From contig CAZZCF010000007.1 of assembly GCA_964652955.1 (NCBI GenBank), forward strand, positions 1 through 64,000: 64,000 bases of DNA. The letters are read 5' to 3'. This DNA comes from an uncultured Leptospirales bacterium (GTDB lineage Bacteria > Spirochaetota > UBA4802 > JAKQUI01). The translations under genes and the position numbers were made by a program. This document shows, piece after piece, positions 39,397-56,361 of the stretch; the stretch's first letter is position 1; each line of letters starts with the position of its first letter. The notes below the pieces were generated by a model, which worked only from the letters and a program-made list of their open reading frames with translations, was not told the DNA's origin and made no database searches.

Positions 39397-42092
39397 AGCG
39401 AAGGACAAAAGCGGATATACAACGAGAGAAGGGAGAGTTCCGCCAGCGCAGCACCGAACTGGAGTGCTCGGAGGACGGTACGTCGGAGAGCGGCAAGCTG
39501 GCGGCGGAGGTGAAAATCAAGGAAGCCCAGTATCGCGGGGTATTCGAGGCATCGAAAGACACTATCCTCATTTTCGATCTCGACGGCGTGATCAAAGAGG
39601 TCAATCCCGCCGCCTGCGACATGTATGGCTACTCGCACGGGGAGATGGTCGGACTCACCGGGAGGGACATTGTGCATCACGACTATCACCACTTGTTCAA
39701 GGAATTCGTTGCGAAAGCAGGGGCGGGCGAGCTGTTTGCCGCCGAGTCGGTTGATCTTCGGAAAGACGGTTCACAATTTGACATAGAGGTCAGAGGAAGT
39801 GGTTTCGAGTATATGGGCCGCCCTCATCTTCTCGCCATCGTTCGTGACATCACTGAGCGCAAGCAGATGGCGAAGGGCCTCCGGCGCATGGCGACGGTGG
39901 TGAGAGACTCCAACGACGCGATCACGATCCAGGACTTCGAGGGTAGGATCACGGACTGGAACCACGGCGCCGAGCTGATGTACGGCTATTCTGAGGAAGA
40001 GGCGTTCCAGTCGAACATCGATCGTCTGACGATTCCCGCCAAGGTTGCAGAGCAGAATGCTTTCATCCAACGGTTGGCGGCGGGCGAAGACGTCACGTCG
40101 TTCGAGACCCAGCGGGTGACCAAGGACGGGCGCGTCCTCGATGTCTGGATGACCGTCACCAAGCTGATGGACGATGCCGGCAAGCCGATTGGCCTGGCCT
40201 CCACCGAGCGCGACATCACCGAGCGCAAGCGGGCCGAGGCGGCGCGCGACGCTGCCTACCAGCAGCTCCTTAAGGCGGAACGAGATCTCTCAATCAGAAA
40301 CAAGATCAACGAGATATGCCTGACCATATCCGACGAGGAGATGTACGGCGAGATTCTGAAGGTCGTCTTGGAGCAGTTGAAGAGCAAGTACGGGACCTTT
40401 GGATGCCTCGAAGAGGACGGCTCACTGGTCGTCCCTTCCATGACCAGGGACGTCTGGGATCAATGCCGAGTTCCGCAAAAGGACATTATCTTCCCAAGAG
40501 ACAAATGGGGAAACAGCATCTGGTGCCGGGCGATCCTGGAGAAGAAGACCCTTCATTCAAATGAGCCGTCATACGTTCCAGAAGGGCACATCCCCATCCT
40601 TCGCAACATATCTGTACCCATCACATATGAGGGCAAAGCAATCGGCCTGTTCCAGGTCGCCAACAAGGATGCGGATTACGACGAAAACGACATCCAGATT
40701 CTCGAAACTATCGCCGGATTCGTAGCGCCGGTTCTAAATGCCAGGCTGCAAAGAGACAGGGAACTGCGGGAGCGCGAAAGAGCCGAAGAAGCGCTCAAGG
40801 CGTCAAACCAACAACTGGTGGCCAGCGAGCAGCAGCTCCGAGCAGCAAATCAGCAATTAGATGCCGGCAACCAGCAGCTCAGGGCCACCGAGCAGCAGCT
40901 TCGCGCGTCGAATCAGCAACTGGAGGCGAGCAATCAGCAGCTCCGGGCAACCGAGCGAGAGCTTCGGCAAAGCGAGCAGTTCATCAGGGCGGTGTTGGAC
41001 AACCTTCCTGTCGGCGTCGCTGTGAACTCGGTAGATCCCGCCGTGGCGTTCAGCTATATGAACGACAGCTTCCCAAGGATATACCGCACCACCAGAGAGG
41101 CGCTCGCCGACCGGGATGCCTTCTGGGAGGCGGTATATGAAGACCCCGTGTTCCGGGCGGAGATCAGGAAGAGGGTGCTGGAGGACTGCGCAAGCGGAGA
41201 CCCGGGAAGCATGAGATGGGAAGACGTCCCGATAACGCGCGAGGGGCAGGAGACTTCCTTCATTTTCGCGCGCAACATACCGGTTGCCGGAAAGGACCTG
41301 GCGATATCCATGGTATGGGATGTGACCGAGCGCAAGCGCGCGGAGGAAGAGCTCAGAAGACACCGCGATAATCTCGAAGAGCTGGTCGCGGAGCGCACCG
41401 TAGAGCTCGAGGCCTTCAGCTACTCGGTATCGCATGATCTCCGGACGCCGCTGCGGGCCATCGACGGCTTCGCAAATATTCTCCTCGAGGAGCACAACGA
41501 TGCGCTCGAAGAAGAGGGAAAACGGCTGCTCGGCATTATAATGAAGAATGTCAATTCAATGGGACAGCTCATCGACGATCTCCTGTCCTTCTCCCGGCTG
41601 GGCCGGCAGGAGATGAAGCGTATGGAGATTGACGTGCGGGCGCTGGTTCGGGAGGTTATCGACAATCTCATGCAGAGTGAGAATAATCGTAATATCGAAT
41701 GGAAGATCGACACGCTCCCTTCAATGATCGGCGATCGCTCGATGATACGGCAGGTCTACGCCAATCTCCTCTCCAACGCGATCAAGTTCACCCGGAAGCG
41801 GGATGCCGCGCGCGTCGAGGTAAGTTCCCGGGAGATCGACGAAGCAATTGTCTATTTCGTGCGGGATAACGGCGCTGGCTTCGATATGCAGTACGCGGAG
41901 AAGCTCTTCGGCGTCTTCCAGCGGCTGCACAGCGAGAAGGAGTTCGAGGGGACCGGGGTCGGCCTTGCCAATGTCAGGCGCATCGTTCACCGGCACGGGG
42001 GCAGGATCTGGGCCGAGGGGAAGGTCGGCGAGGGCGCGACTTTTTATTTTACCATTATGCATGAGGAGGGAACCGATGAAATATCCCGATGA
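39393..42092 (+). CDS. Cytoplasmic multi-sensor histidine kinase: PAS-PAS-GAF, heptad-repeat coiled-coil, PAS, HisKA, HATPase_c
   Basis: Start chosen at MKRRTKAD (AGGAGG RBS; track ORF starts at 39354). Two PAS (DITERK linkers), a GAF-like block, eight 7-aa repeats (A-x-N/E-Q-Q-L-R), a further PAS, and a kinase core paralogous to 38020..38880. Confidence 0.85.
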
Positions 42093-42519
42093 AGTCGAGA
42101 TTCTTCTCGTCGAGGACAAGGAGGAGGACGTGGAGCTCACTCTGCGGGCGCTGCGAAAGAACAACCTGGCGAACCGGGTGCACGTGGTTTCGGACGGCCA
42201 GGAGGCGATTGATTTCATCTTTGGGAAGGGAGCATACAGTGGGAGAGATATCAACCATACACCGAGGGTTATTCTCCTCGACCTGAAGCTTCCCAGGGTG
42301 AGCGGCCTTGAGGTGCTTCAGAGGATCAAGTCTGATGAACGGACAAAGGTGATACCGGTGGTGATGCTCACCTCCTCCAAAGAAGAGCAGGATATCGTCG
42401 AGAGCTACCGGCTGGGGGTGAACAGCTACATCGTCAAGCCGGTGAGCTTCAACGATTTCGTGAAGGCGGTTACCGACCTGGGCCTGTACTGGATGCTGCT
42501 CAATAAGCCGGCATTCTAG
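42076..42519 (+). CDS. Single-domain response regulator (REC only)
   Basis: 147 aa. Starts [18 protein letters not shown]. Acceptor in VILLDLKLP. Conserved K in IVKP. Overlaps the kinase 3' end. Confidence 0.82.
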
Positions 42520-42529
42520 GAATGTAAAT

Positions 42530-43936
42530 ATGATGAGCGAAGCAGCAAGAGATCTGCATATACTGATGCTCGAGGACAGCGAGGCCGACGCCGAGCTCAT
42601 AATCAATGAGATGCGAAAGGGCGCTCTCGCCTTTACGTACCAAAGGGTGGAGACGCGGGAGAAGTATCTCGCGGCAATTGAAAAGTATATGCCCGACATG
42701 ATTCTCTCGGACAACAGCCTTCCCGCTTTCGACGGCCTGTCGGCGCTCAGTATTGCGCAGGAAAAATGCCCCGAGGTCCCCTTCATCTTCGTCTCCGGGA
42801 CCATCGGCGAGGAGGTGGCCATAGAAACGCTGAAAGCCGGCGCGACCGATTACGTCATCAAGGACAGGCTCTCGCGGCTTGTTCCGGTAATAGAACGAGC
42901 ACTGAGGGAGGTGGAGGAGCGGCGGGAGAAGAGGCGGGCCGAGCAGCTCCTTTTGGAGAGCGAAAAGCGGTACCGGAGCCTCTACGAGGATGCGCCCATC
43001 GCCTACTTCACCATCGGCAGTGATCGCTCCATACGGCAGGCGAACAGCGCGGCAACTAGGCTTCTCGGCTATTCGAAGGACGAGCTTCTCCGTATGGAAT
43101 TATTTGATCTCTATTCCGACAATCCCGAGGGATTGTCCCGGGCGCGGAGCCACTTCGAGCGGTTTCTCCGGGGAGAGAATATCGACGACGAGGAGCTCAT
43201 GATGCGGAAAAGCGACGGCGAGCCGGTCTGGGTGAGCCTCGCCGTCCGTCCCGTCAGGGACGATCGGGGAGCCGTCGTGGAATCCCGATCCATGGCCATC
43301 GATATCACCGATCGGAAGCTGGCGCAGGAAGAGCTGGCAAAGAGCTTTGTCAAGCTCCGGAAGACCCTGAACGACACCATTTACGCCATGGCGCTCACCA
43401 TCGAGTCGCGGGACGCCTACACCGCCGGGCATCAGCAGAGGGTGGCCCATCTCGCGTGCGCCATTGCGGAGGAGCTGGGCATGCCGGCCGAGCAGATTGA
43501 GGGACTGCACATGGGCGCCATTGTCCACGATATCGGCAAGATCTCCATTCCCGCGCAGATTCTGAGCAAGCCGGGGAAGCTTCTCAAGGAGGAGTTCGAG
43601 ATAATTATCACCCACCCGCAGCAGGGATATGACATTCTCAAGGGGATTGATTTCCCCTGGCCGGTTGCGGAGATGGTGCTTCAGCATCACGAGCGGATAA
43701 ACGGCACCGGTTATCCCGGCGGGCTCAGGGATGGGGAAATACTCATTGAATCGAAGATACTCGCCGTCGCCGATGTGGTCGAGGCGATGTCCTCTCATCG
43801 TCCGTATCGTCCCAGCGTGGGTATCGTGAACGCCCTCGGGTACATTCAGATGAACAGCGGCGTTCTCTTTGATGCAGGAGTGGTCGGAGCCTGTGAGACT
43901 GTTTTCGAAAAGGGATTTGAATTTGAGGAGGGATAA
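42530..43936 (+). CDS. Response regulator with PAS and HD-GYP (c-di-GMP phosphodiesterase) domains
   Basis: 468 aa. REC (DMILSDNSLP), PAS, and HD-GYP with an intact HD (HQQRVAHL, VHDIGK) and GYP (HHERINGTGYPGGL). Confidence 0.85.
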   Translation: MMSEAARDLHILMLEDSEADAELIINEMRKGALAFTYQRVETREKYLAAIEKYMPDMILSDNSLPAFDGLSALSIAQEKCPEVPFIFVSGTIGEEVAIETLKAGATDYVIKDRLSRLVPVIERALREVEERREKRRAEQLLLESEKRYRSLYEDAPIAYFTIGSDRSIRQANSAATRLLGYSKDELLRMELFDLYSDNPEGLSRARSHFERFLRGENIDDEELMMRKSDGEPVWVSLAVRPVRDDRGAVVESRSMAIDITDRKLAQEELAKSFVKLRKTLNDTIYAMALTIESRDAYTAGHQQRVAHLACAIAEELGMPAEQIEGLHMGAIVHDIGKISIPAQILSKPGKLLKEEFEIIITHPQQGYDILKGIDFPWPVAEMVLQHHERINGTGYPGGLRDGEILIESKILAVADVVEAMSSHRPYRPSVGIVNALGYIQMNSGVLFDAGVVGACETVFEKGFEFEEG

Positions 43937-44153: not shown

Positions 44154-46859
44154 ATGACTGAAAAACTGAAGATTCTGATCCTTGAAGACAGTCCCGACGA
44201 CTGCGAGCTGATGGAGCGCGAGCTCAGGAAGGGGAAAATTTCCTTTGCCGCCACGCGCGTCGAGACGGAAGAGGATTATATCAGGGAGATCGAGAATAGT
44301 ACCCCCGATATTTTACTCGTTGATTACGCCCTTCCGAGCTTCGACGGGCTCTCGGCGTTGCGCATCTCGATGGAAAAGCGCCCCGGCGTGCCCTTCATCT
44401 TCGTCTCGGGAGTCATCGAGGAGGAGACAGCCATCGAGAGCCTGAAGGCGGGAGCCACCGACTACGTCTTTAAGCACCGGCTCTCCCGGCTGGTCCCCGT
44501 GGTGAAACGGGCGCTGCGGGAGGTCGAGGAGCGCGGGGAGCTGGAGCGTGCCGAGCGGGCGCTCAGGGATTCCGAGAGACGATACCGTGAGCTGGTGGAG
44601 AACATCAACGACGTGATATTCTCCCAGGACGCCGAGGGTCGCATTGTCTATATCAGCCCCGCCCTGGAGCGGATGAGCCAGTACAAAACCGAAGATATCA
44701 TCGGCAAATCCTTTATAGAGCTTGTTCACCCGGAGGATCTCCCCGGACTGATGGAGAGCTATACCCGAACCATGGAAGGGAGCCGGGAGCCGTGGGAATT
44801 CCGGATGTTCGACAAGGACGGCTCCGTTCGCTGGGTGCGGACATCGAGCAGGCCCCTGGTCAGGGATGGTGAGATTGCTGGTTTGCTGGGGATTTTGACC
44901 GACATCACCGAGCGTAAATTAGATGAAGAACGGATACGGCATCTCAACCTGGTGATTCGCTCGATCCGGAATGTCAATCAGCTCATCACCAAGGAGAAGG
45001 ATCGGGATAGACTGCTCCAGGGGGCCTGCGACAACCTGGTAGAGAACCGCGGGTATTATAAATGCTGGATTGCCCTTCTGGGCAGCGACGGACGGCTTCT
45101 GAAGCATAAGGAGGCCGGATGGGGGGATGCGCTTTCCCAGAAGATCGATATGGCCGAAAAGGGCAAACACGCCCTAATGGTCAGAAGGACGCTGGAGCAA
45201 CCGGGCGTCGCCGTTGTCATGGATCCCGCACGGGAGTGTTTCGACTGTCCCCTGTCAAGTTACTACGAAGAGGGAATGGCGGCGATGACCTCGCGACTTG
45301 AGTACGAGGGGACGGTGTACGGTCTCATCAGCGTTACCATTCCTGCAGCGATTGCCGTTGACGAAGAGGAACAGAGCCTTTTTCAGGAGGCTGCAGATGA
45401 CATCGCCTTCGCCCTCCATAACATCGAGATGGAGAAGGAGCGTGACGCCTCTCAACGGGATCTTGCCGAGCGTATCAAGGAGATGAGCTGTCTCTATCGG
45501 ATAAACGAGATAGGCCGGCGGGAAGATTACTCCATTGACGATTTTCTCCGGGAGACCGTCAGGATAATGCCGGACGGATGGCAGTTTCCGGAGTTGACCG
45601 GCTGCCGCATCGTCTTTGAGGGGAAAGAATATAGAACAGATAATTTCAGGGAAACCGAGTGGAAGCAGGAAGACGATATAATCATCAACAGGGAGCGGGC
45701 GGGGAAGATCGAGGTGTGTCTCCTGGAGCCTCCTCACGCGGACGAGGAGCCCTTTCTCCATGGTGAAGAAGAGCTCATCGGGGCAATCGCCTTCACCCAT
45801 GCCGTCATCATCCATCAGTGGCAGACGGTGGAAGCCCTCCGGAAGAGCGAGGAGAAATATCGGACCATTCTCGAGCAGATGGTGGAGGGATATTTTGAGA
45901 GCGATTTGAAAGGAAACATTACCTTTGTCAACAAATCGGTATGTGAAGCAATGGGATATGAGAAGGATGAGTTTATAGGCATGAATTACCGGCAGATCAC
46001 GGGCGAGACGAACGCGCAGAAGGTCTGGCAAGTGTACAACGACGTTTATCGCAGCGGGGAGCCTAAAAAGAACGCAGAGCACGATTTAATAAGAAAAAAC
46101 GGGAGCAGGATATCCGTTGAGGGATCCGTCGACTTGATTAGAGACCGGTCGTCGAATCCCATTGGTTTCAGAAGCGTCGTGCACGATGTCACCGATAGAA
46201 AGAAGGCCGAGGAGCAGATACGCCAGTCGCTGCGGGAGAAGGAGATCATGCTGCAGGAGATTCATCACCGGGTGAAGAACAACATGCAGATTATCTCCAG
46301 CATGCTGGGGCTTCAGAAGAAATACATCCGGGACGAACGGGATATCGAGCTCTTCAGAGACAGCCAGAGCCGCATTCGCTCCATGGCCCTGGTTCACGAG
46401 AAGCTCTATCGATCGAGGAATCTGGCGCGGATCGACTTTGCCGAATACACGAGGGATCTCGTCGATCAGCTGTTGCAGTTCTATAACGTAAAGAAGATGG
46501 ACATAGACTTCAAAATTGAATTTGAGAGCATATATTTCGGCGTTGACATCGCCATTCCCTGCGCCCTCATCATCAACGAGCTCGTCTCGAATTCGCTGAA
46601 ACACGCTTTCCCCGATGGTATGAAGGGGATACTATACGTTCATCTCACCAAAGATGGAGACATGTACCTTCTGACCGTGAGCGACAACGGTATCGGCTTC
46701 CCCAAAGGGATCGACTTTCAAAAAACCGAATCGCTCGGCCTGCAGCTCGTCGACGCCTTTGTCAGGCAGATCAAGGGGAGCATATCGCTTGAGCGGAAGG
46801 GAGGAACCTCTTTCAACATCGCGTTCAAGGATAAAAAAGCAGGAAAAGGTATTACATGA
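44154..46859 (+). CDS. Hybrid sensor kinase: REC, PAS, GAF, PAS, HisKA_2, HATPase_c
   Basis: 901 aa. REC paralogous to that of 42530. PAS domains, a central GAF-like region, H-box EIHHRVKNNMQIISSMLGL typical of HisKA_2/HWE-like kinases, and a C-terminal ATPase. Confidence 0.85.
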   Translation: MTEKLKILILEDSPDDCELMERELRKGKISFAATRVETEEDYIREIENSTPDILLVDYALPSFDGLSALRISMEKRPGVPFIFVSGVIEEETAIESLKAGATDYVFKHRLSRLVPVVKRALREVEERGELERAERALRDSERRYRELVENINDVIFSQDAEGRIVYISPALERMSQYKTEDIIGKSFIELVHPEDLPGLMESYTRTMEGSREPWEFRMFDKDGSVRWVRTSSRPLVRDGEIAGLLGILTDITERKLDEERIRHLNLVIRSIRNVNQLITKEKDRDRLLQGACDNLVENRGYYKCWIALLGSDGRLLKHKEAGWGDALSQKIDMAEKGKHALMVRRTLEQPGVAVVMDPARECFDCPLSSYYEEGMAAMTSRLEYEGTVYGLISVTIPAAIAVDEEEQSLFQEAADDIAFALHNIEMEKERDASQRDLAERIKEMSCLYRINEIGRREDYSIDDFLRETVRIMPDGWQFPELTGCRIVFEGKEYRTDNFRETEWKQEDDIIINRERAGKIEVCLLEPPHADEEPFLHGEEELIGAIAFTHAVIIHQWQTVEALRKSEEKYRTILEQMVEGYFESDLKGNITFVNKSVCEAMGYEKDEFIGMNYRQITGETNAQKVWQVYNDVYRSGEPKKNAEHDLIRKNGSRISVEGSVDLIRDRSSNPIGFRSVVHDVTDRKKAEEQIRQSLREKEIMLQEIHHRVKNNMQIISSMLGLQKKYIRDERDIELFRDSQSRIRSMALVHEKLYRSRNLARIDFAEYTRDLVDQLLQFYNVKKMDIDFKIEFESIYFGVDIAIPCALIINELVSNSLKHAFPDGMKGILYVHLTKDGDMYLLTVSDNGIGFPKGIDFQKTESLGLQLVDAFVRQIKGSISLERKGGTSFNIAFKDKKAGKGIT

Positions 46860-48247
46860 GAGGAGACGCTCGCAACGCGAAGAAAATACTGATTGTCGAG
46901 GACGTCATCATCGTTGCGATGGACATGAAGGATAAGCTCGAGCGGATGGGATTCGAAGTCGTCGGTATGGCAGCCTCCGGGGAGGAGGCGATAGAGAAGG
47001 CCCATCAGATCGAGCCGGATCTCATCCTCATGGACATCATGCTCGACGGCGACATCAACGGCATCGAGGCGGCACAGGAGATTCGGGATACGCTCTCCAT
47101 ACCGGTCATCTACACGACCGCGCTCTCCGGAGAAGAGGTGATCGAGCGCGCCCAGATCACCGATCCCTACGGCTACCTGATCAAGCCCATTGAGGAGAAG
47201 GATCTACTCATTTCGATCGAGATAGCCCTCAGGAGGCATGAGTTCGAAAAGAAGCTGGAGGAGAGCGAGAAGCGCTTTCGCACGCTCTTCGAGGAATCGA
47301 AGGACGCCATCTATATAAGGGACAGCGAAGGGAATTATGTCGATCTCAACCGATCGATGCTCGAGCTCTTTGGCTATGAGCGGGGGGACATGGCGGACCT
47401 CACCGTGAATGGCCTCTTTGCTGATCGGGATGATATTGCTTCATTTGAGCATACCCTGCGGGAAGTGGGATTCGTAAAGAACCTCGAAGTGAATATGCAG
47501 CGAAAGGACGGCACCGGGCTCATCTGCGTGTTGACGGAGAATGCGCTGCGGGAGAACGGAGCGATAACCGGCTATCAGGGTGTTATTCGCGATATTACCG
47601 ATAGAAAGCGCTCCGAGGAGGAGATACGGAGAGGGTACGAAAAGCTGCGTAAAACCATCGACGGCATTGTGCAGGCGATGTCGCTCACCGTCGAGGCGCG
47701 TGACCCTTACACGGCGGGCCATCAGAGGCGGGTGGCGGAGCTCGCCGCGGCAATTGCCGACGAGATGGGGCTCGACGAACAACAGATAGAGGGGATCAGG
47801 ATGGCAGGGGTAATACACGATCTCGGGAAGATATACGTTCCCTCGGAGATACTGAGCAAGCCGGGGAAGATTACCGATGCCGAGTTCAACATCATCAAGA
47901 TGCACCCGCTGGTGGGGTACGATATACTGAAGACCATAGACTTCCCCTGGCCCATTGCGCAGATTGTACATCAGCATCACGAACGAATGGACGGCTCCGG
48001 GTATCCGCAGGGACTTACGGGAGACGATATTCTCATCGAGGCGCGGATCATGGCCGTTGCGGACGTGGTCGAGGCCATGGCATCGCACCGTCCCTACCGG
48101 CCCGCTCTCGGCATCGATGTTGCTCTCGACGAGATCCGGAAGAACAGGGGCCGCTACTATGATCCCGATGTGGCCGACGCCTGCCTTCGGCTCTTTGATG
48201 AGAAGGGATACCGCATAGAGACAAAAGCAGACACGCTGCTTTTTTGA
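46856..48247 (+). CDS. Response regulator with PAS and HD-GYP domains (second paralog)
   Basis: 463 aa. FixJ-like REC (DLILMDIMLDG...PVIYTTA), PAS, HD-GYP (HQRRVAEL, IHDLGK, HHERMDGSGYPQGL). Confidence 0.85.
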   Translation: MRGDARNAKKILIVEDVIIVAMDMKDKLERMGFEVVGMAASGEEAIEKAHQIEPDLILMDIMLDGDINGIEAAQEIRDTLSIPVIYTTALSGEEVIERAQITDPYGYLIKPIEEKDLLISIEIALRRHEFEKKLEESEKRFRTLFEESKDAIYIRDSEGNYVDLNRSMLELFGYERGDMADLTVNGLFADRDDIASFEHTLREVGFVKNLEVNMQRKDGTGLICVLTENALRENGAITGYQGVIRDITDRKRSEEEIRRGYEKLRKTIDGIVQAMSLTVEARDPYTAGHQRRVAELAAAIADEMGLDEQQIEGIRMAGVIHDLGKIYVPSEILSKPGKITDAEFNIIKMHPLVGYDILKTIDFPWPIAQIVHQHHERMDGSGYPQGLTGDDILIEARIMAVADVVEAMASHRPYRPALGIDVALDEIRKNRGRYYDPDVADACLRLFDEKGYRIETKADTLLF

Positions 48248-50616
48248 ATGGAATTGATGCTATGAAATCGAAGCGTATACTTATTGTCGAGGACGAGATA
48301 CCAACCGCCATGTACCTTCGGGGTATTCTGGAGGGGAGGGGATACAGTGTCGCCGGTGCAGTCGCCACCGGCGAGGAGGCGCTTGCACGCTTCAAAGCCG
48401 AGCAGATAGACCTCGTCCTCATGGACATCATCCTGGAGGGGGAGATGGACGGGATTGAGACGTCGCGTCGCATCAAGAAGCTGCGGGATGTTCCGATTAT
48501 CTACCTCACCGCGAGCACCGACGAGAGGAACCTCAGCCGCGCGATGGAAACCGAGCCGCACGGCTATCTTATCAAGCCGATAGACGAATACGAGCTCTAT
48601 TCGACGGTGGAAACGACTCTCATACGGGATTCCCTGGAGAAGAAGATCAGGGAGAGCGAGGAGAAATACCGAACCCTCGTTGGGAATCTCAACGATGTGC
48701 TCCTTACCGTTGATACCGCGGGAACGATTACCTACATCAGTCCGGTGATCGAGCGGATGAGCGGATATATGGTGGATGAAATTTCCGGGAGAAATTTCAC
48801 CGATTTCATTCATCCCGATGACCTTCATGCGCTCCTCGAGAGCTTCACTTCAACGCTGAAGGGAGATCTTGCGCCATCCGAGTTCAGGATGCTTGACAGG
48901 GATGGAACGGTGCGTCACATGCGGTCCTCGAGCAGGCCTATTGTTGAGAAGGGAGAAGTGGTCGGCCTCTCGACGCTCATGACCGACATCACCGATCGGA
49001 AGATGCTCGAAGCGGAAAAGGATCGCTTCCTTGCGGACCTTGCAGAGCGAACGAAGGAGCTGGGATGTCTCTACAACATATCGAAAATTTTCGAGAACCG
49101 GGAACTTCCCCTCAACGCAATATTGAAAGAAATGACAAAGGCCATCCCCGAGGCGTGGCAATATCCGGACATGGTGCAGGCGAGAATCGTCTACGACGGC
49201 AGGGAGTACCGTCCGAGGAATTTCTCCCAAAAAGCGCATGCGATAACGGCGGATATTGTCGTCAGGGGCGAGAAGGCCGGTTATGTTCAGGTTTCCTATC
49301 GCGAGAAACGTACGACTCAGAGTGAGGAACCCTTTCTGGCGGAGGAACAGAAGCTCCTCGACGTTATCGTCGAACGGCTCGGAACCATAATTGAGCATAA
49401 ACAGGCGGATGAGGAGCTCCGCATCGCCCGACGCGAGATTGAGAGCCTCCTTGCCGCAATAACCTCGATTCTCATTCAGGTCTCGACAAAGGACCAGGTG
49501 ATTCGCTGGAACAGGATTGCCGAGATCACCTTCGGCATACCGGCTTCCGCGGTGCTGAACCGTAAGTTCTCCCAGTGCTCAATTAAATGGGAATGGGATA
49601 ATATCTATGAGGGGATATTCTACTGCATTGCCGAGGATAAACCCGTTCGGCTCGATGAAATCGTCTATGTTCGACCGGATGGGAAGAAGCGTTTTCTCGG
49701 CATCACGGTCAATCCTATAAAGGATGTTGACGACACGCTCATGGGTTTTCTCCTCTTCGGAACCGATATCACCGAACGGAAGAACATGGAGAGCCAGCTT
49801 CTCCAGGCGCAGAAGCTTGAATCGATAGGGCAGCTCGCTGCCGGCATCGCCCACGAGATTAATACGCCCACGCAGTACGTGAACGATAACGTACACTTTC
49901 TGCAGGGCGCCTTCGCCGATTACCAGAGGCTTCATGAGCGATGCGATCTGCTCGTTGCCGCCGTACGGGAGGAAGGCACCACAGTTGAGATGGCGAAGCA
50001 GATAGAATCAATCAAGGGAGAGATAGATTTCCCCTTCATCAACGAGGAGATCCCGAAGGCAATCGAACAATCGATAGACGGCCTGGGTCGCATCTCGCGG
50101 ATTGTGCAGTCGATGAAGCAGTTCTCACATCCGGGAACCGACAATAAAGTCGACGAGGATATCAATAAAGCGCTGGAAAATACGGTTGCCATTTCACGAA
50201 ACGAATGGAAATACGTTGCCGATGTGGAAACAGACTACGATCCGGACATCCCCCGCGTTCCCTGCTTTCCCGGCGAGCTGAACCAGGTCTTTCTCAACAT
50301 ACTGGTGAACGCCGCACAGGCCATCGAGGAGAAAAACAGGGGGAGCGATGAAAAAGGGGTGATACGCATCAGCACCAGTCAGGTTGAAAGCTCCGTAGAG
50401 ATACGCATCAGTGATACCGGAAAGGGGGTTCCGCCGGACATACAGTCGAAGGTTTTTGATCCCTTTTTCACCACGAAGGCGGTGGGAAAGGGAACGGGGC
50501 AGGGACTCGCTATATCGCACGCTGTTATCGTTGAGAAGCACGGCGGCACCATTTCGCTCGAGTCGGAGATGGGGAAGGGGACAATATTTACTATTCGATT
50601 ACCGCTGGAGGGATAA
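48244..50616 (+). CDS. Hybrid sensor kinase: REC, PAS, GAF-like, PAS, HisKA, HATPase_c
   Basis: 790 aa. REC (DLVLMDIILEGE...PIIYLTA). H-box region QLAAGIAHEINTP. GHKL motifs DTGKGVP and GKGTGQGLA. Confidence 0.85.
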   Translation: MNGIDAMKSKRILIVEDEIPTAMYLRGILEGRGYSVAGAVATGEEALARFKAEQIDLVLMDIILEGEMDGIETSRRIKKLRDVPIIYLTASTDERNLSRAMETEPHGYLIKPIDEYELYSTVETTLIRDSLEKKIRESEEKYRTLVGNLNDVLLTVDTAGTITYISPVIERMSGYMVDEISGRNFTDFIHPDDLHALLESFTSTLKGDLAPSEFRMLDRDGTVRHMRSSSRPIVEKGEVVGLSTLMTDITDRKMLEAEKDRFLADLAERTKELGCLYNISKIFENRELPLNAILKEMTKAIPEAWQYPDMVQARIVYDGREYRPRNFSQKAHAITADIVVRGEKAGYVQVSYREKRTTQSEEPFLAEEQKLLDVIVERLGTIIEHKQADEELRIARREIESLLAAITSILIQVSTKDQVIRWNRIAEITFGIPASAVLNRKFSQCSIKWEWDNIYEGIFYCIAEDKPVRLDEIVYVRPDGKKRFLGITVNPIKDVDDTLMGFLLFGTDITERKNMESQLLQAQKLESIGQLAAGIAHEINTPTQYVNDNVHFLQGAFADYQRLHERCDLLVAAVREEGTTVEMAKQIESIKGEIDFPFINEEIPKAIEQSIDGLGRISRIVQSMKQFSHPGTDNKVDEDINKALENTVAISRNEWKYVADVETDYDPDIPRVPCFPGELNQVFLNILVNAAQAIEEKNRGSDEKGVIRISTSQVESSVEIRISDTGKGVPPDIQSKVFDPFFTTKAVGKGTGQGLAISHAVIVEKHGGTISLESEMGKGTIFTIRLPLEG

Positions 50617-50624
50617 TCGGGAAG

Positions 50625-50996
50625 ATGCCACAGGATAAAATGGGAATACTCTTTGTCGATGACGATCCGAAACTGCTCGAAGGCCTGCGGAGAATGCTCA
50701 GGGGAAAGCGAGAGGTCTGGGAGATGGCCTTTGTGGTAAGCGGAAGGGAAGCGCTCGCGGTGCTTGCCGGATCTCATATCGATATAATTGTCGCAGACTA
50801 CAAAATGCCGGGGATGAACGGCTTCGAGCTTCTGGAAAAGGTGAAGGATGAGTATCCGCATATCAGGCGGATTCTCCTCACCGGGCAGTCCGATGAGGAG
50901 GTCTTCGCGCGATCCGGGGAGATCGTACACCGCTACCTCTCCAAGCCCTGTGAGCCGGGAGTGCTCATCGAAACGCTCGAACATATTTCTACATAA
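50625..50996 (+). CDS. Single-domain response regulator (REC only)
   Basis: 123 aa. Acceptor IVADYKMPGMNG. Conserved K in LSKP. Confidence 0.8.
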   Translation: MPQDKMGILFVDDDPKLLEGLRRMLRGKREVWEMAFVVSGREALAVLAGSHIDIIVADYKMPGMNGFELLEKVKDEYPHIRRILLTGQSDEEVFARSGEIVHRYLSKPCEPGVLIETLEHIST

Positions 50997-51005
50997 GGAC
51001 ACATT

Positions 51006-52535
51006 ATGAAACCTGATGCTGTTAGCATACTCATCGTTGAGGATTCGGTAACAACGGCGATGTATATCGACAGAATGCTCAATGATCGGGGATATGAAAA
51101 AATACGGAGAGCGGTTTCGGGTACCGAGGCGCTGACGATGGTACGGGAAGAGCCGCCGGATCTTGTACTGATGGATATTATGCTGGAAGAGGATATGGAC
51201 GGTATCGAGACGACACACACCATAAAGGAGTACCTCGATGTTCCGGTCATTTATATAACCGCCAATACAGACGAGCGGAATCTTCAGCGAGCGCGGGAGA
51301 CCAATCCCCATGGATACCTCATTAAACCGATAAATGATTTTGAGCTCTACACGGTTGTCGAGATGGCGCTGTTCAGGCATCAGCTCGAAAAGAAAATCGC
51401 CGAGAGCGAGGAGCGATACCGCACGCTCCTCTCGTCAATATCGTCAATTCTCATCGGAATCGACACCGGCGCTATCATCACGCACTGGAATGCCGTTGCC
51501 GAGAATACCTTCGGCAGAACCGCTTCCGAGGTAATAGGTCGCAGTATTTACGATTTCGAAATATGCAGGGACCGGGAGGCCATACGTGATGGCATCTCCC
51601 GGAGCCGGAGTGGTAATGAGGCGGTATCTTTAACCGATATTCCATTCACGAACCGGAATGGTGAGGAAGGGTATCTCGGGATTACTATTAGTGTGATCAG
51701 ATCACCCGGAGGAACGATTACCGGTTTTCTCCTGTACGGGAAAGACGTTACCGAGAAGCGAATGTTGGAACAACAGCTCATTCAGTCGAGCAAAATGGCC
51801 TCGCTCGGCGAGATGGCGACCGGCATCGCCCATGAGATCAATCAACCTCTGAATGTCATCAAGATAGCCGCACAGCTTGTCAAAGACAGCATTATTGAGA
51901 ATGACTATACGCCGGGTTTCATCGAGGAGCGCTCGGATGTCATCCTGTCCCAGGTGGAGAAGGCATCCGGGATTATCGATCATATACGTACCTTCGGCCG
52001 CAAGGATGACCTGAACTTCACCGACCTCGATCCCCATAAGCCGATCAGGGACGCTTTTACGCTTCTCGGGGAGCAGCTCAAAAACCATTCCATTGAATAC
52101 TCCCTGGAGCTGGACCATGCCGAATGTATTATTTCCGGCGACGCGAACCGCCTGGAGCAGGTCTTCATCAACCTGATAATCAATGCGCGAGACGCCCTCG
52201 ATACCTATGAGTGCTCTGATCAAAAAAGTATAAAGGTCTTATCATTACACGATGCGGATAATGGAACGATAGTAATTCACTTCGAGGATAACGGGCCGGG
52301 AATTCCCGACACCGGTGTCAATAAAATATTCGAGCCTTTTTTTACCACCAAGGAGGTCGGGAAGGGAACCGGACTCGGCCTCTCCATCAGTTACAGCATC
52401 ATCAAATCGCATGATGGTTCGATAAAAGTGAGCTCGGGTAAAGCGGGGACACGCTTCACCATAGCGCTGCCTGTGAAACGTGTTTCCGGTGAGCAGTGCA
52501 GCAATTCAGGAAAAGTGCGGGAGGTGCCACATTGA
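51006..52535 (+). CDS. Hybrid sensor kinase: REC, PAS, HisKA, HATPase_c
   Basis: 509 aa. REC (DLVLMDIMLEED...PVIYITA), one PAS, H-box ATGIAHEINQP, ATPase DNGPGIP and GKGTGLGLS. Confidence 0.85.
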   Translation: MKPDAVSILIVEDSVTTAMYIDRMLNDRGYEKIRRAVSGTEALTMVREEPPDLVLMDIMLEEDMDGIETTHTIKEYLDVPVIYITANTDERNLQRARETNPHGYLIKPINDFELYTVVEMALFRHQLEKKIAESEERYRTLLSSISSILIGIDTGAIITHWNAVAENTFGRTASEVIGRSIYDFEICRDREAIRDGISRSRSGNEAVSLTDIPFTNRNGEEGYLGITISVIRSPGGTITGFLLYGKDVTEKRMLEQQLIQSSKMASLGEMATGIAHEINQPLNVIKIAAQLVKDSIIENDYTPGFIEERSDVILSQVEKASGIIDHIRTFGRKDDLNFTDLDPHKPIRDAFTLLGEQLKNHSIEYSLELDHAECIISGDANRLEQVFINLIINARDALDTYECSDQKSIKVLSLHDADNGTIVIHFEDNGPGIPDTGVNKIFEPFFTTKEVGKGTGLGLSISYSIIKSHDGSIKVSSGKAGTRFTIALPVKRVSGEQCSNSGKVREVPH

Positions 52536-53290
52536 ATAGAAAACTCATTCTTCTGGTTGATGACGAGCCCGATATCTGTGCCGAGATGAGTATCTTCCTG
52601 TCCAAAAAGGGATATGACGTGATTGTCGCAAACAATGGGAAGGATGCAATCGACCTTTTTAAATTAAGAAATCCGATTCTGGTGATAACCGATTTCAAGA
52701 TGCCCGGGATGGACGGTATTGAGCTCCTCAAAAAGATAAAGCTCATCAACCGCGACATTCACGTCATCCTCATGAGCGGCGTTGCGGATATAAAAACAAC
52801 GGTCACCGCCATGAAGGCCGACGCCTTTGACTTTGTCGCGAAGCCGGTTGATTTAAAAAAACTTGAACAGGCAATTAAGGTTGCCATTCAGCGGGCGGTT
52901 GATTCTCTCTCGAGAAAGGGAAAGAAGCTGGTGAGCCTCTTCCTTACCCATGAAGGGCTTGAAGGTGAGCAGCCGGTCTCCGTTCTGTACTTCAATATTA
53001 ATATTGATGAATACTCTCAGGAGCGCTATCGTGCCGAGTTCCATGATCTCATGGTAGATGGCCATCTGCGGGAACATATTATATTCAACATGCAAAGTGT
53101 GATGTATATCAACAATATCGGGCTGAACTTTCTCATCTATATTAAAGAGTCACTGAATGAGCGTAACCATAAAATATATATGTGCAATGTTCAGAATCCG
53201 GTGCAGAATTATCTAAGTACCCTCGGGTACAGCAGCTTTTTCAACGTGGAGACGAGCCTTGAAACTATTATTGAGAAGATTCGCTACTGA
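52496..53290 (+). CDS. Response regulator with a C-terminal STAS (anti-sigma-factor-antagonist-like) domain
   Basis: 264 aa. REC (ILVITDFKMPGMDG), then an about 110-aa domain resembling SpoIIAA/STAS. The start may instead be the TTG at about 52532 overlapping the upstream stop. Confidence 0.7.
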   Translation: MQQFRKSAGGATLNRKLILLVDDEPDICAEMSIFLSKKGYDVIVANNGKDAIDLFKLRNPILVITDFKMPGMDGIELLKKIKLINRDIHVILMSGVADIKTTVTAMKADAFDFVAKPVDLKKLEQAIKVAIQRAVDSLSRKGKKLVSLFLTHEGLEGEQPVSVLYFNINIDEYSQERYRAEFHDLMVDGHLREHIIFNMQSVMYINNIGLNFLIYIKESLNERNHKIYMCNVQNPVQNYLSTLGYSSFFNVETSLETIIEKIRY

Positions 53291-53382
53291 TTCTGGTGAT
53301 ATACCATCGTTCTTAGAGGGGAATGATCTTCCTGATGTGATTCAGGAACGCTCCGGCAGAGGCGGTGGGTAAGGAGAAAATA

Positions 53383-54537
53383 ATGGAAGAAAAAATTCTG
53401 GTTGTCGATGATGAGCAGAACGTGCTTGACGGTATCAAGCGGCACCTGCACGGCAAGCTGAATATAATCACTGCCGGATCGGGTATGGAAGGCCTGGAGA
53501 TGATAAAGACCAGCGAGCCCTTTTCGGTGGTTGTTTCCGACTACAAGATGCCGCAGATGAACGGCGTCATGTTTCTTGCGAAGGTGGGTGAGATGGCACC
53601 CGACACCGTTAAGATTATGCTCACCGGACAGGCGGATATGCAGGCAATTATCGATGTCATCAATCAGGGAACCATATTCCGATTTCTGACAAAACCGTGT
53701 CCTCCCGATCTGCTCAGGAAAAATATTTATGATGGCATTCATCAGTATCGATTAATCAACGCCGAGAAGGAGCTTCTCGGGAAGACCCTCAGCGGGAGCA
53801 TCAAGCTCCTCAGCGATCTCCTTGCGCTGGCGAAACCGGAAGCCTTCAGCCGCTCTCTGCGCGTGCGGCATATCGTGCGGCAGATTGCCGAAAAGATGGA
53901 TCTGGGGAATATATGGCAGGTCGAGATTGCGGCGATGCTGTCCCAGATAGGCTGTATAACCATTCCGGATTCGATACTCAGCAAGGTGTACCGGGATATT
54001 CGGCTTCATCCCGATGAGATGCTCATGTTCGAGAATCATCCGAAAACCGGAAGCGAGATGCTTGCCAATATCCCCCGTCTGGAGCCGGTTGCCGAGATTG
54101 TGCTGTATCAGGAGAAGCTCTTCGACGGCACCGGTTTCCCCCGCGATAAGAGAAGCGGCGAGGATATTCCCCTGGGCGCCCGCATCCTGAAGGTTGCCCT
54201 GGACTTCGACAAGATGCTTCAATCCGGATTGGACACGAATGAGGCCATAGATGAAGTGAAGAAGCGTATGAGATGGTATGATTATAAAGTTGTTCAAAAA
54301 CTTGATAAAACAATATCGCGTGACAACAAAAAGAAGAAGATCTATACGGTTAAAGAGGTCATGATCGATCATTTAGACGATACCATGCTCCTTGCCAAGG
54401 AGCTCGTCTCCGCTTCGGGAGTGGTTCTCGGGAGCAAAAACCAGCGGTTGACCAAATCGATGATAATAACGCTGAAGAATTACAGAAAGAACAGGGAGAT
54501 AAAAGATCCCATTATGGTGGTGGTTCCGCTCACGTGA
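53383..54537 (+). CDS. Response regulator with a degenerate HD-GYP-like output domain
   Basis: Start chosen at MEEKIL (AAGGAG RBS; track ORF starts at 53365). REC intact (VVVSDYKMPQMNG). The output domain aligns with HD-GYP but lacks the HD dyad (SQIGCITIP) and has YQEKLFDGTGFP in place of HHE...GYP. Confidence 0.7.
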   Translation: MEEKILVVDDEQNVLDGIKRHLHGKLNIITAGSGMEGLEMIKTSEPFSVVVSDYKMPQMNGVMFLAKVGEMAPDTVKIMLTGQADMQAIIDVINQGTIFRFLTKPCPPDLLRKNIYDGIHQYRLINAEKELLGKTLSGSIKLLSDLLALAKPEAFSRSLRVRHIVRQIAEKMDLGNIWQVEIAAMLSQIGCITIPDSILSKVYRDIRLHPDEMLMFENHPKTGSEMLANIPRLEPVAEIVLYQEKLFDGTGFPRDKRSGEDIPLGARILKVALDFDKMLQSGLDTNEAIDEVKKRMRWYDYKVVQKLDKTISRDNKKKKIYTVKEVMIDHLDDTMLLAKELVSASGVVLGSKNQRLTKSMIITLKNYRKNREIKDPIMVVVPLT

Positions 54538-54590: not shown

Positions 54591-55982
54591 ATGAATGATA
54601 TTCGCCTGCTCATCGTTACAAGAAACCCTGATAGGTGCTCATGGCTCATGGAAACACTGCTGGAGGGGCATTACAATATCATTGTTGTCAACCGGATTGC
54701 AGAGGCGAAACGGAAAACAAAAAATGAATACTTTGATTTAATCATTGCCTTGACCGATTCGATTACGGAGAGCGATTCGGCAATACGGCGGTTCATAAAT
54801 GGAGAGGATCTCAACAAGAAGATACCCGTCCTTCTGATGAATCCCGAGAAGCTCACGGTCGAATTATTTTTTCGCTGGCTCAACAGGGGAATGGGACATC
54901 ACATCAACAATCCGTATCAGAAAGAGTATCTCATAACGAGCATACGGGAATTAATAAACAGCAGTAATCCGAAGGATGCGAAGAACGAACGTATCTGCAT
55001 GGAGATAAAGTCAGATAAAAAAAAGTATTCACTTAAACTGGGTAAAGCGCAGTTAAGAGATTTCCTGGTATCAACCATCAGGAATGCCGTACAGCAGAAT
55101 CTCATGATTCAAAAGGCCCGGGAAGAGCTGACCGCGCTTAATGAGAATACCATGAGAGATTCCCCGGAGGATATTGTATCAGCGGGGAACCGAAAGAGCG
55201 ATGGTTTAAAAAAGGAACTGATAGCCGCATTCGAAAATGAAGAATTTACGGTATACTATCAGCCGATTGTTTCTCTCAAGCGGGGGAAGATTGCCGGTTT
55301 TGAGGCGCTTGCCCGGTGGGAGCATCCAAGCAGAGGGCTCGTGAAGCCAGACGCGTTTATTCCGCATGCCGAGGAGACGGGGCTTATTATCCCCCTGGGG
55401 AACTGGATAATCGAGAAGTCGGTCGGGCAGCTGAAGAAGTGGCATGAGACTTTCCATTCCGATCCTTCCCTTTCTATAAGTATCAATCTCTCGGCTGTTC
55501 AGTTCAGACATGAGGGACTGTACGAAACCATCGAAGAGATAGTTGCCCGTTACCGCGTCCCTCCCGATACAATCAAGTTTGAGATTACGGAAAGCGCCCT
55601 CATGGAGGACAAGGAATCAGCTAATATGATGCTCCTCAAGCTCAAAGCAATGGGTTTTCAGATCTGCATGGATGATTTCGGAACCGGCTATTCATCGCTC
55701 AGCTATCTCAGGCACTTTCCCGTTGATATTCTCAAGATAGACAAGTCCTTTGTTCGATGGATGGGTTTTGACGATGAGAGCGAGGTCATTGTGCAGATAA
55801 TCGTTCAACTGGCCCATTTCCTTCACATGCAGGTCATCGCCGAAGGAATTGAGAATCAGGAGCATTACCGGAAGCTCAGTGAGCTCTCCTGCGAGTACGG
55901 GCAGGGATATCTTTTTTCAAAACCGATCGATGCCCGATCGGCAGAAGAGCTGTTACGATCTGAAACGGTTTGGAATTGTTAG
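54591..55982 (+). CDS. EAL-domain c-di-GMP phosphodiesterase with an N-terminal pseudo-receiver domain
   Basis: 463 aa. The N-terminal REC-like fold has Ala at the acceptor position (DLIIALTD). The C-terminal EAL has catalytic motifs (QPIV, FEALARW, DDFGTGYSSLSYL, KIDKSF, EGIE). Confidence 0.8.
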   Translation: MNDIRLLIVTRNPDRCSWLMETLLEGHYNIIVVNRIAEAKRKTKNEYFDLIIALTDSITESDSAIRRFINGEDLNKKIPVLLMNPEKLTVELFFRWLNRGMGHHINNPYQKEYLITSIRELINSSNPKDAKNERICMEIKSDKKKYSLKLGKAQLRDFLVSTIRNAVQQNLMIQKAREELTALNENTMRDSPEDIVSAGNRKSDGLKKELIAAFENEEFTVYYQPIVSLKRGKIAGFEALARWEHPSRGLVKPDAFIPHAEETGLIIPLGNWIIEKSVGQLKKWHETFHSDPSLSISINLSAVQFRHEGLYETIEEIVARYRVPPDTIKFEITESALMEDKESANMMLLKLKAMGFQICMDDFGTGYSSLSYLRHFPVDILKIDKSFVRWMGFDDESEVIVQIIVQLAHFLHMQVIAEGIENQEHYRKLSELSCEYGQGYLFSKPIDARSAEELLRSETVWNC

Positions 55983-56034
55983 GTTGCAATACCATGAAGC
56001 TGAATTTATGTGGTGAGTGTTCATGGGGGAATAA

Positions 56035-56361
56035 CTAATTCACATAACAAATATTTTTCTCGGCATTGATGACGCCATTCCCTGCGAAATGATTATCAAC
56101 GAGCTTGTCGCGAATTCATTGAAATACGCCTTTCCCGACCAAAGTAAGGGTGAAATATCAATAGATTTTCACAAGGACTCTTCGGGGGATCATACTCTCG
56201 TCGTGCGTGATAGCGGTGTGGGAGTTCCCGATAATATTGACATTTCAACAACTGAATCCCTCGGTTTGCATCTGGTGCATTCCTTGACAAAACAGCTGAA
56301 AAGGGATGTTGCTCTGGATAGGAGGAACGGAATGGCGGTAACCGTTATATTTCCCGAATGA
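56035..56361 (+). pseudogene. 3' remnant of a HisKA_2-type histidine kinase gene (HATPase_c domain only)
   Basis: The frame opens just after a stop. It encodes IDDAIPCEMIINELVANSLKYAFPD...TESLGLHLV, paralogous in protein and DNA to the C-terminus of 44154..46859. No upstream H-box or sensor. Confidence 0.55.

Follow-up and report, generated by a model that had tools for sequence, protein, structure and literature searches.

Two cases of Rec-HKs (Rec-controlled histidine kinases, or hybrid response regulators), in which a receiver (REC) domain precedes the kinase, are close to the system considered here. In the Lvr pathway of Leptospira, LvrA phosphorylates the N-terminal receiver of LvrB, upon which a coiled coil is formed and the catalytic domain is freed; LvrB then acts on LvrC, a receiver joined to an anti-sigma fold (PMC13269768, PMC5863495). 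In the second case, CheA3 > CheS3 > CheY3 of Rhodospirillum centenum, the terminal single-domain receiver CheY3 is phosphorylated only by the second kinase, CheS3 (PMC3868531). No histidine phosphotransfer (Hpt) protein stands between kinases and receivers in either pathway (PMC13269768, PMC5863495, PMC3868531), and two reviews of two-component systems (PMC12471899, PMC12189002) add nothing on receiver-first kinases. As to stressosomes, RsbT acts on N-terminal dimerisation domains and linkers of its effectors (PMC12143880), and modules with two-component or cyclic di-GMP (c-di-GMP) proteins downstream are a described class (PMC9237108). The present work concerns a run of signalling genes at 27600-56361 of a 64,000-nt stretch of DNA (the window; assembly GCA_964652955.1, contig CAZZCF010000007.1, positions 1 to 64,000) from an uncultured Leptospirales bacterium. 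The run is probably one signalling supercluster, in which an island of receiver-first genes serves as the expanded two-component output module of the stressosome cluster that precedes it.

The system combines known kinds of parts: an RSTX stressosome with two-component output, Rec-HKs, RpfX-type HD-GYP proteins and an HnoD-like pseudo-enzyme; what is unusual is the size of the combination and its several tiers. Outside the sigma-B paradigm of Bacillus and Listeria, the recurrent gene unit described below connects the stressosome with the mechanism of Rec-HKs, which has recently been solved. The observations of this analysis given below concern domain content, synteny, the relationships of families and the integrity of motifs; genes and their products are denoted by the first position of the gene, and all genes of the cluster are on the + strand.

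Extent of the Cluster

According to the list of open reading frames (ORFs) and the Pfam matches, 21 signalling genes follow one another on the + strand without interruption in 27600-56361, with carbohydrate-uptake and catabolism genes on either side. Neighbouring genes are joined by overlaps or gaps of at most 10 nt in 35227-38880, 39354-43936 and 44154-53290, and the intergenic gaps within the island do not exceed 217 nt. Response_reg was found at the N-terminus of nine consecutive products (42076-54537; Pfam, E 2.6e-12 to 3.5e-28), in agreement with the sequence-only reading of this DNA, which had described nine consecutive same-strand receiver-first genes. The same reading overlooked the stressosome context; the island probably is the downstream module of the RsbRST-X cluster at 32961-38880. 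The product of 50625 was present on 14 contigs, with identical gene order in the five displayed (JGI and ENA metagenomes); the island is therefore not an assembly artefact.

Stressosome Module and Synteny

The RsbRST-X stressosome-type cluster (32961-38880) directly precedes the island. The gene set sensor-STAS, STAS-only, RsbT-type kinase and PP2C phosphatase was identified by Pfam, and the same order was found in seven other loci (L166-L172). Three RsbR-like co-antagonists come first: RsbR-like 1 (GAF-STAS, 32961..33989, start codon uncertain; STAS about 70% identical to those of the other two), RsbR-like 2 (PAS-STAS, 34044..34991; the ortholog in L166, 83% identity, lies directly upstream of RsbS) and RsbR-like 3 (PAS-STAS, 35227..36219; 59% identity to 34044). 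They are followed by an RsbS-like protein consisting of STAS only (36219..36599, 126 aa; 70-90% identity to the STAS-only gene of L166-L169), an RsbT-like switch kinase (36586..37008, HATPase_c_2, 140 aa; NCBIfam, anti-sigma F factor-like; orthologs of 63-80% in L166-L169) and an RsbX-like protein, in which an RsbT-like HATPase_c_2 domain is fused to a PP2C/SpoIIE phosphatase (37010..38023). In the alignment, the phospho-site column of STAS holds Ser in the RsbS-like protein (..MDS..) and Thr in the RsbR-like proteins (..IDT..).

In L166 the RsbR-like gene is followed by RsbS with no equivalent of RsbR-like 3 in between; RsbR-like 3 is a lineage-specific duplicate. The 56-codon ORF in front of it (34991..35161) is a 5' remnant of an RsbS gene and contains the first 46 RsbS residues at 91% identity to the product of 36219 (blastx, aa 2-47); because of this remnant, 35227 is taken to have arisen by tandem duplication of an RsbR-RsbS' segment.

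The RsbX-like family comprises more than 4000 homologs (50-58% identity, across phyla), and its gene stands after R-S-T in every one of the seven sampled loci. The N-terminal RsbT-like ATPase domain shares 36% identity with the RsbT-like protein 36586. The fusion of an RsbT-like domain with PP2C is the norm in the more than 4000 homologs; the cited literature describes RsbX as a single-domain PP2C.

With the Vibrio-type stressosome (PMC9237108; RsbT-controlled effectors, PMC12143880) the locus shares the R-S-T-X order, a kinase gene immediately downstream that is devoid of RsbU_N, the lack of a sigma factor or RsbU, and HisKA, REC, HD and EAL domains further downstream. It differs in having three RsbR paralogs with GAF or PAS heads, whereas the Vibrio system has a single globin; in the extra RsbT-like domain of the RsbX-like protein; in the size of the downstream part (13 genes and four Rec-HKs vs the two proteins VvD1 and VvD2); and in a 40-residue N-terminal motif of the kinase, which finds no mention in the cited stressosome papers.

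The best non-identical homolog of 48244 (P0002, 71% identity) is encoded on contig L166, the gene order of which is that of the window: RsbR-RsbS-RsbT-RsbX-HK286-REC148-REC.PAS.HDGYP-REC..HisKA_2 kinase-REC.PAS.HDGYP-REC..HK-REC (HK, histidine kinase; 62-90% identity). Every island gene seen in L166 has a 1:1 ortholog in the window at 62-90% identity, above any paralog. As L166 keeps the joint order, the island is physically and evolutionarily continuous with the stressosome module.

In the distant loci L167 and L168 (RsbX-like, 56-57% identity) the order is R-S-T-X-HK (ca. 270 aa, 50% over the full length)-REC (60%)-REC (family B, see below)-HK, followed by receivers with OmpR or HD-GYP outputs. 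The gene after RsbX-like is at most 6 nt away in all seven loci, with a 4-nt overlap in six of them; it encodes a kinase in six of the seven and a 99-aa ORF in L172. In L166-L168 it is a sensor-less kinase of about 270 residues (50-79% full-length identity to 38020), after which come, in this order, a family D receiver (60-88%) and a receiver-first kinase with a family B receiver; in L169-L171 it is a PAS-containing kinase. The recurrent unit thus consists of R-S-T-X, a kinase that has no sensor but bears the conserved motif at its N-terminus, one receiver and a Rec-HK of LvrB-like type, and it offers a small set of soluble proteins for testing the link between RsbT and a kinase.

Probable Entry Kinases

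The post-RsbX gene of the window (38020..38880) encodes a HisKA-HATPase kinase of 286 aa with no sensor domain and overlaps the stop codon of the RsbX-like gene by 4 nt. Residues 1-41 (nt 38020-38142), MKQEELQKKLDKALRTIQSLQGELRETNQGVIALNLELEQR, are kept in every post-RsbX gene, whether short or coding for a PAS kinase. This helical motif of about 40 residues (..L..A.ETIR.LQ.EL.ETN.G.IAL.LELEQR; core ..ETNxGxIALxLELE..) corresponds to no Pfam family. Its pattern gave one match in the window, one each in L166-L171 and a near variant in the 99-residue post-RsbX ORF of L172; no further match was obtained in six-frame translations of 175 loci (2.07 Mb). By analogy with the RsbT-controlled effectors, the motif is a candidate RsbT-docking element on these kinases.

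The second putative entry kinase, 39354 (39354..42092; PAS-PAS-GAF-coiled coil-HisKA-HATPase), has a core 81% identical to that of 38020 (86% nt identity over 300 nt), is absent from L166 and carries no post-RsbX motif. In the 512 nt before it the GC fraction is 0.62 (other gaps, 0.33-0.44). The remnant of a frameshifted cheD-like gene (38864..39390; weak Pfam match to CheD) separates the two paralogous kinases; its N-terminal and C-terminal halves are in different frames, which may reflect either a pseudogene or an error of assembly. Its beginning, MKYPDEV, equals the seven opening codons of the REC gene 42076 and marks the insertion point of the kinase-core duplication. Within 39354, three imperfect 63-nt direct repeats (40806-40973; product aa ca. 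485-540) encode a coiled-coil segment, QQLRA(S/T)(E/N)QQL, which follows the GAF domain and precedes the last PAS-like region.

NCBIfam gave the C-terminal kinase module of LvrA as the top match of both cores (38020, 286 bits; 39354, 265 bits; next family, ca. 140 bits); the kinase core of L168 also top-matches this module, at about twice the next score.

Receiver-First Kinases and the Hpt Question

Four Rec-HKs were identified by Pfam: 27600 (27600..31502; REC (family A)-PAS x5/GAF-HisKA_3-HATPase), 44154 (44154..46859; REC (family B)-PAS-GAF-domain X-PAS-HisKA_2-HATPase), 48244 (48244..50616; REC (family A)-PAS-domain X-PAS-HisKA (long insert in DHp)-HATPase; sequence matches in the PDB, ZraS and LvrB) and 51006 (51006..52535; REC (family A)-PAS-HisKA-HATPase). 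HisKA, HisKA_2 or HisKA_3 and HATPase_c (E 1e-9 to 1e-25) lie within the same polypeptide, and inspection of the translations showed that the H, N, G1 and G2 boxes are all kept in the window kinases. The phospho-acceptor pocket is intact in the receivers of all four, 27600 having E-N for the acidic pair.

Hpt domains were sought in the products of the called window genes (E ≤ 0.001-0.01) and in nine unannotated linkers (E ≤ 10); none was found in either set, which bears out the earlier statement that no Hpt is visible. The proposal that Hpt-like four-helix bundles might be hidden in linkers did not hold, in that no linker gave an Hpt match and domain X proved to be GAF-like. This domain of about 135 residues (48244, aa 255-400, 49006-49443; 44154, aa 425-565, 45426-45848) was considered as a hidden Hpt and rejected, being modelled as a small GAF-like alpha/beta fold and not as a helical bundle: the AlphaFold model (predicted local distance difference test, pLDDT, 85.8) shows helix-helix-four strands-helix, and the best structural matches of this predicted model are GAF domains (TM score about 0.6). 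The signature is ELxCLYxIS...WQYPE...ARI...EGPFLxEE; there is no Pfam family for domain X, and a profile search returned 11,280 cluster representatives at E ≤ 0.001 and 5,044 at 1e-30; in many of these proteins more than one stretch is matched.

The sequence-only reading saw in the island an Hpt-lacking phosphorelay of possibly novel wiring. This is not the reading to be preferred: the receiver-first kinases belong to the known Rec-HK class, which is run as HK -> REC-HK -> REC cascades, and in such a cascade no Hpt is therefore needed. That reading had also held that conventional cognate partners, if found for each kinase, would tell against it; this is largely the case, in that partners can be named for most of the kinases, and they lie inside the cluster. 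For annotation it follows that receiver-first kinases without Hpt are to be read as kinase cascades and not as broken phosphorelays.

With the Lvr pathway (LvrA > LvrB > LvrC; PMC13269768, PMC5863495) the island shares soluble receiver-first kinases that are charged from upstream without Hpt, here to judge by class resemblance, and an output tied to partner-switch proteins (receiver and anti-sigma fold in LvrC vs REC-STAS here); the best named relatives are metagenome-assembled genomes of Spirochaetota. The LvrB receiver is the only NCBIfam match of the family B receivers (135-165 bits; 42530, 165; 44154, 149). The curated cut-offs of LvrA and LvrB (NF047465 and NF047466; 1200 and 500 bits) are not reached by 38020, 39354, 42530 or 44154, the scores being far below, and the matches are homologous modules, not orthologs. 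Further differences are the several proposed tiers, the c-di-GMP outputs, the HisKA_2 type of the kinase behind the LvrB-like receiver, and the input, which here would be the stressosome, whereas LvrA uses its own PAS domain. Between receiver and dimerisation/histidine phosphotransfer (DHp) domain the window kinases have one to seven PAS, GAF or X domains and not the direct coiled-coil joint of LvrB; the direct form, Rec-DHp-CA (CA, catalytic ATP-binding domain), was found in L168 (381 aa).

The CheA3 > CheS3 > CheY3 pathway (PMC3868531) is alike in that a kinase charges the N-terminal receiver of a second kinase with no intervening Hpt; it differs in its input (a chemoreceptor/CheA complex), its single tier and its output, cyst development. 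A CheS3-like arrangement, CheA-CheB-(REC-HisKA-HATPase)-REC-(REC-HD-GYP), was noted in L173 (1-5585) beside the kinase/REC-STAS pair of that locus.

Candidate partners were read from family matches and gene neighbourhood. In NCBIfam, PhyK is the top match of the 44154 kinase core, and the PhyR receiver is that of each of the four family A receivers; PhyK and PhyR are a cognate pair. The NarL-type response regulator 31789 (31789..32478; REC-GerE), the next gene after 27600 (286-nt gap), is the likely cognate of that HisKA_3 kinase. The order 48244, then 50625, is found both here and in L166. In L173 and L174 a REC-STAS protein is encoded in a two-gene operon behind a PAS-HisKA-HATPase kinase of 368-372 aa; the window pair 51006 (AtoS-like)/52532 (AtoC-like receiver) shares 45-52% identity with these, and since the operon recurs, 51006 > 52532 is a conserved pair. 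Residues 151-490 of 51006 are 45-47% identical to the REC-STAS-linked kinases of L173 and L174, which carry no receiver, so that 51006 is an elsewhere stand-alone kinase to which a family A receiver was added.

Receiver Families and Domain Shuffling

All receivers of the window were aligned and classified with a neighbour-joining tree (200 bootstraps, relatives included), and five families (A-E) plus the NarL-type receiver were obtained. Family A comprises the receivers of 27600, 46856, 48244 and 51006 (42-58% mutual identity; that of 27600, 42-53% to the others); family B, those of 42530 and 44154 (64% identity; clade with members from L166, L167 and L168, bootstrap 100); family C, those of 50625 and 53383 (37% identity, bootstrap 94); family D, that of 42076 (bootstrap 100 with its orthologs); and family E, that of 52532 (bootstrap 96 with other REC-STAS proteins). 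Asp, Thr/Ser and Lys are retained in all of them. Two paralogous receiver families had been proposed for the island; both exist (A and B), yet they cover only five of its nine receivers, at least five families are present in all, and family A is no local expansion.

A recent local expansion of family A was rejected on the basis of the tree and of nearest-neighbour distances. Foreign receivers are sometimes nearer to a window member than its own paralogs are (P0011 is closer to 48244 than 51006 is), and the family forms no exclusive window clade. Among the best database matches to 48244, about 107 of 119 have a family A receiver at residues ca. 4-122, and family A is thus a widespread N-terminal REC(-PAS) cassette.

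Pfam agrees with the fusions listed by the sequence-only reading (27600 with HisKA_3; 42530 and 46856 with HD-GYP; 48244 and 51006 with HisKA; 44154 with HisKA_2), and its suggestion of combinatorial domain shuffling was confirmed by blastp. In 42530 and 46856, paralogous HD-GYP modules (full-length identity, 40%) stand behind different receiver families; PAS1 and domain X are common to 44154 and 48244, the receivers and kinase types of which differ; and the C-terminal half of 48244 matches 51006. Growth of the cascade by setting receiver cassettes before ordinary kinases (e.g. 51006) and by duplication of whole segments is thereby displayed.

Receiver-first gene arrays recur in other organisms. 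In L175 (GCA_964527475.1, contig CAZGNL010000013.1), from another organism, eight of ten consecutive same-strand genes are receiver-first; they encode mostly REC-PAS kinases of HWE/HisKA_2 or HisKA type, the last being a REC-PAS-sigma54 activator. No stressosome genes were present within the 10 kb shown.

Outputs and Pseudo-Enzymes

The outputs named earlier, c-di-GMP hydrolases and STAS proteins, were found as two intact HD-GYP proteins, one EAL protein and the REC-STAS protein 52532; the interspersed genes likewise proved to be as described (REC-only 42076 and 50625, REC-STAS 52532, degenerate HD-GYP 53383). The only transcription-factor output of the cluster is 31789. No GGDEF domain was found in the cluster.

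The single-domain receiver 42076 (42076..42519, family D), a conserved companion of the kinase that follows RsbX, overlaps the stop of 39354 by 17 nt and has orthologs (60-88%) right after the kinase in L166-L168. The single-domain receiver 50625 (50625..50996, family C) was assigned by NCBIfam to a NosR-like receiver, with an ortholog fragment (70%) in L166.

The proteins 42530 (42530..43936; LvrB-like family B receiver) and 46856 (46856..48247; PhyR-like family A receiver) have the REC-PAS-HD-GYP architecture of RpfX and the full catalytic motif set of RpfG/RpfX (bioRxiv 10.1101/2021.11.05.467447): metal-binding H, HD, HH and GYP are all kept, and both are predicted to be active. They differ from RpfG/RpfX in that their receivers come from two families, the two that also head kinases of the cluster.

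In the Hno network of Shewanella and Vibrio (HnoK-HnoB-HnoD) one kinase serves several receivers, as would be the case here; HnoD, a receiver with a degenerate HD-GYP (HD>SE, HHE>QLE), has no hydrolase activity on c-di-GMP and acts as an inhibitor of HnoB, a REC-EAL enzyme (PMC8846402; bioRxiv 10.1101/2021.11.05.467447). The HnoD-like 53383 (53383..54537; family C receiver and HD_5; NCBIfam NosR family, 278 bits vs a cut-off of 400) has lost all four HD-GYP motifs (HD>SQ, HHE>YQE, GYP>GFP, first His lost) and adjoins the EAL gene 54591. Unlike the Hno network, the window has no H-NOX sensor, its EAL protein has a pseudo-receiver, and an interaction of 53383 with 54591 is putative.

The EAL domain of 54591 (54591..55982; Pfam, E 1e-77) contains all of the motifs EAL, N, ExxE, DDFGTG, KxD, EGxE and QG. 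The ca. 125 residues before it gave no Pfam match; each of their five best sequence matches in the PDB is a receiver that aligns from end to end (E 0.012-0.16), and comparison with the window receivers by hhalign gave P 4.7e-4. In the alignment the acidic pair, Thr and Lys are replaced, and the segment is a probable pseudo-receiver, i.e. a tenth receiver-type start; its AlphaFold model, built without an alignment, had a mean pLDDT of 47, too poor for a fold search.

The REC-STAS response regulator 52532 (52532..53290) belongs to a rare type (ca. 20 full-length homologs). Scans of genome and metagenome contigs for it yielded no ortholog; all that matched were generic receivers, through the pattern DFKMPGMD. 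At the Ser/Thr column of RsbS and RsbR, its STAS domain and those of its homologs have Asn (YINNIGLNF) in place of the Ser of the SpoIIAA/RsbV type; the domain is presumably controlled via the fused receiver and not by a Ser kinase.

Proposed Wiring and Alternatives

Of the earlier interpretation, the shuffled cassettes, the lack of Hpt and the outputs stand; a kinase cascade was misread as an Hpt-less phosphorelay, and the stressosome input was missed. We infer the wiring given in this paragraph in each of its phosphotransfer edges and in the coupling of RsbT to a kinase. By homology, the three RsbR-like sensors (GAF or PAS with STAS) would hold the RsbT kinase together with RsbS; released RsbT would act on the sensor-less kinase 38020 via its N-terminal helical motif of about 40 residues, and the RsbX-like kinase-phosphatase fusion is predicted to reset the stressosome complex. 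Kinase 39354, with PAS/GAF sensors of its own and no motif, would act on the same receivers without depending on the stressosome. In the first tier, 38020 and 39354 would phosphorylate 42076 and the family B receivers of 42530 (HD-GYP) and 44154 (HisKA_2 kinase); in the second, 44154 would phosphorylate the family A receivers of 46856 (HD-GYP), 48244, 51006 and 27600; in the third, the transfers would be 27600 > NarL-type 31789 (transcription), 48244 > 50625 and perhaps 53383, and 51006 > REC-STAS 52532. Each phosphorylated N-terminal receiver would switch on the ATP-dependent autokinase of its own protein, so that the signal would pass from kinase to kinase, and the PAS, GAF and X modules between receiver and kinase would gate each tier by further signals. 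The net output would be c-di-GMP hydrolysis by two HD-GYP proteins and one EAL protein (predicted active), a STAS partner switch controlled by phospho-Asp, and one transcription factor; the HnoD-like 53383 possibly modulates the EAL protein 54591.

A farther-reaching form of this proposal is unlikely to hold: a stressosome-triggered His-Asp cascade of at least three tiers would be a bacterial counterpart of the mitogen-activated protein kinase (MAPK) type, with a c-di-GMP phosphodiesterase tap and a PAS/GAF gate at each tier; feedback from the REC-STAS protein at its lower end would reach RsbT or, in the RsbX-like protein, the RsbT-like domain, and the post-RsbX motif would be the RsbT control element for histidine kinases in many stressosomes that lack RsbU_N.

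Several results weigh against the stressosome-fed cascade. The coiled-coil mechanism of LvrB is not directly transferable, because PAS domains separate receiver and DHp. Every NCBIfam match is below its curated cut-off and denotes family resemblance, not orthology; the PhyR margin over the next family is clear for 46856 and 51006 and amounts to 2-3 bits for 27600 and 48244. Kinase 38020 resembles the second kinase module of LvrA, while the His shown to donate to LvrB belongs to the first (PMC5863495). RsbU_N was sought in 38020 and rejected, no match being obtained in residues 1-131 at E ≤ 10, and for the Vibrio stressosome it could not be demonstrated that RsbT and the downstream kinase interact (PMC9237108). 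As family A is widespread, the kinases for it could sit elsewhere in the genome. No RsbW-like neighbour of the REC-STAS pair was found in L173 or L174. Scans for promoters and terminators gave counts no higher than in shuffled controls; operon limits were therefore drawn from gap sizes alone.

It is rather unlikely that the region is a storage cluster of independent systems, accumulated by repeated duplication and recombination, the partners of which (kinases, receivers, acetyl phosphate) are elsewhere and the co-location of which reflects ancestry and co-expression. The wide spread of the family A cassette (ca. 107 of 119 matches to 48244) and its lack of an exclusive window clade would fit, as would the stand-alone two-gene systems of the 51006/52532 type elsewhere, the rapid turnover seen in duplication scars and remnants, and the similar array without a stressosome in L175. 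It is opposed by the order, overlaps and 1:1 orthology kept in L166, by the R-S-T-X-HK-REC-(REC-B)HK core kept in distant lineages, by stop/start overlaps of 4-17 nt, which argue for co-translation, and by the family-level cognate matches, all of which are within the cluster. Very unlikely is a role of the N-terminal receivers mainly as phosphate sinks or as dimerisation or inhibitory domains that tune the PAS/GAF response of their own protein, with no flow from kinase to kinase: although every receiver-first kinase has PAS/GAF/X sensors of its own, the single-domain receivers 42076 and 50625 look like sinks, and a receiver in a sensor kinase can inhibit, e.g. in RsbK (PMC4574943), the full phospho-acceptor pocket is kept, so that some kinase must charge these receivers; in three lineages family B receivers are specifically found together with the post-RsbX kinase, and the same receiver families are found on HD-GYP outputs with no kinase of their own.

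A true His-Asp-His-Asp phosphorelay may also be envisaged, in which the DHp bundles of the receiver-first kinases replace Hpt in the manner of Spo0B or ChpT, the phosphoryl group passing from a receiver to the His of its own DHp and on to the next receiver, with the ATPase domains in a minor role. DHp dimers are structurally Hpt-like (Spo0B, ChpT), no Hpt occurs anywhere in the window, and receivers and DHp domains alternate along the cluster. This relay is nevertheless most improbable: all CA domains keep their ATP-binding boxes, whereas those of Spo0B and ChpT are degenerate; the one to three sensor domains between receiver and DHp make a geometry unfit for intramolecular transfer; and in the closest studied homologs phosphorylation of the receiver activates ATP-dependent autophosphorylation (LvrB, PMC13269768; CheS3, PMC3868531). 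The kinase cascade fed by the stressosome is thus retained as the preferred reading.

Minor Features

Rfam and tRNA scans of the whole window gave nothing, and no c-di-GMP riboswitch was found. A 46-aa ORF at 43942-44082 (called by JGI) was treated as spurious, since it has no family match and no gene is called in the equivalent 99 nt of L166. Among the flanking carbohydrate-utilisation genes there are two long ORFs, 21323-23035 (+, 570 aa) and 61402-62574 (-, 390 aa), with no Pfam family at E ≤ 0.01. The cluster ends with the 3' remnant of a HisKA_2-type histidine kinase (56053..56361, ATG at 56089), of which the HATPase part only is left (Pfam; 46% identity to the C-terminus of 44154); the homology to 44154 in 56089-56361 extends in the same frame to positions upstream of the ATG, as far as 56053, where stop codons precede it.

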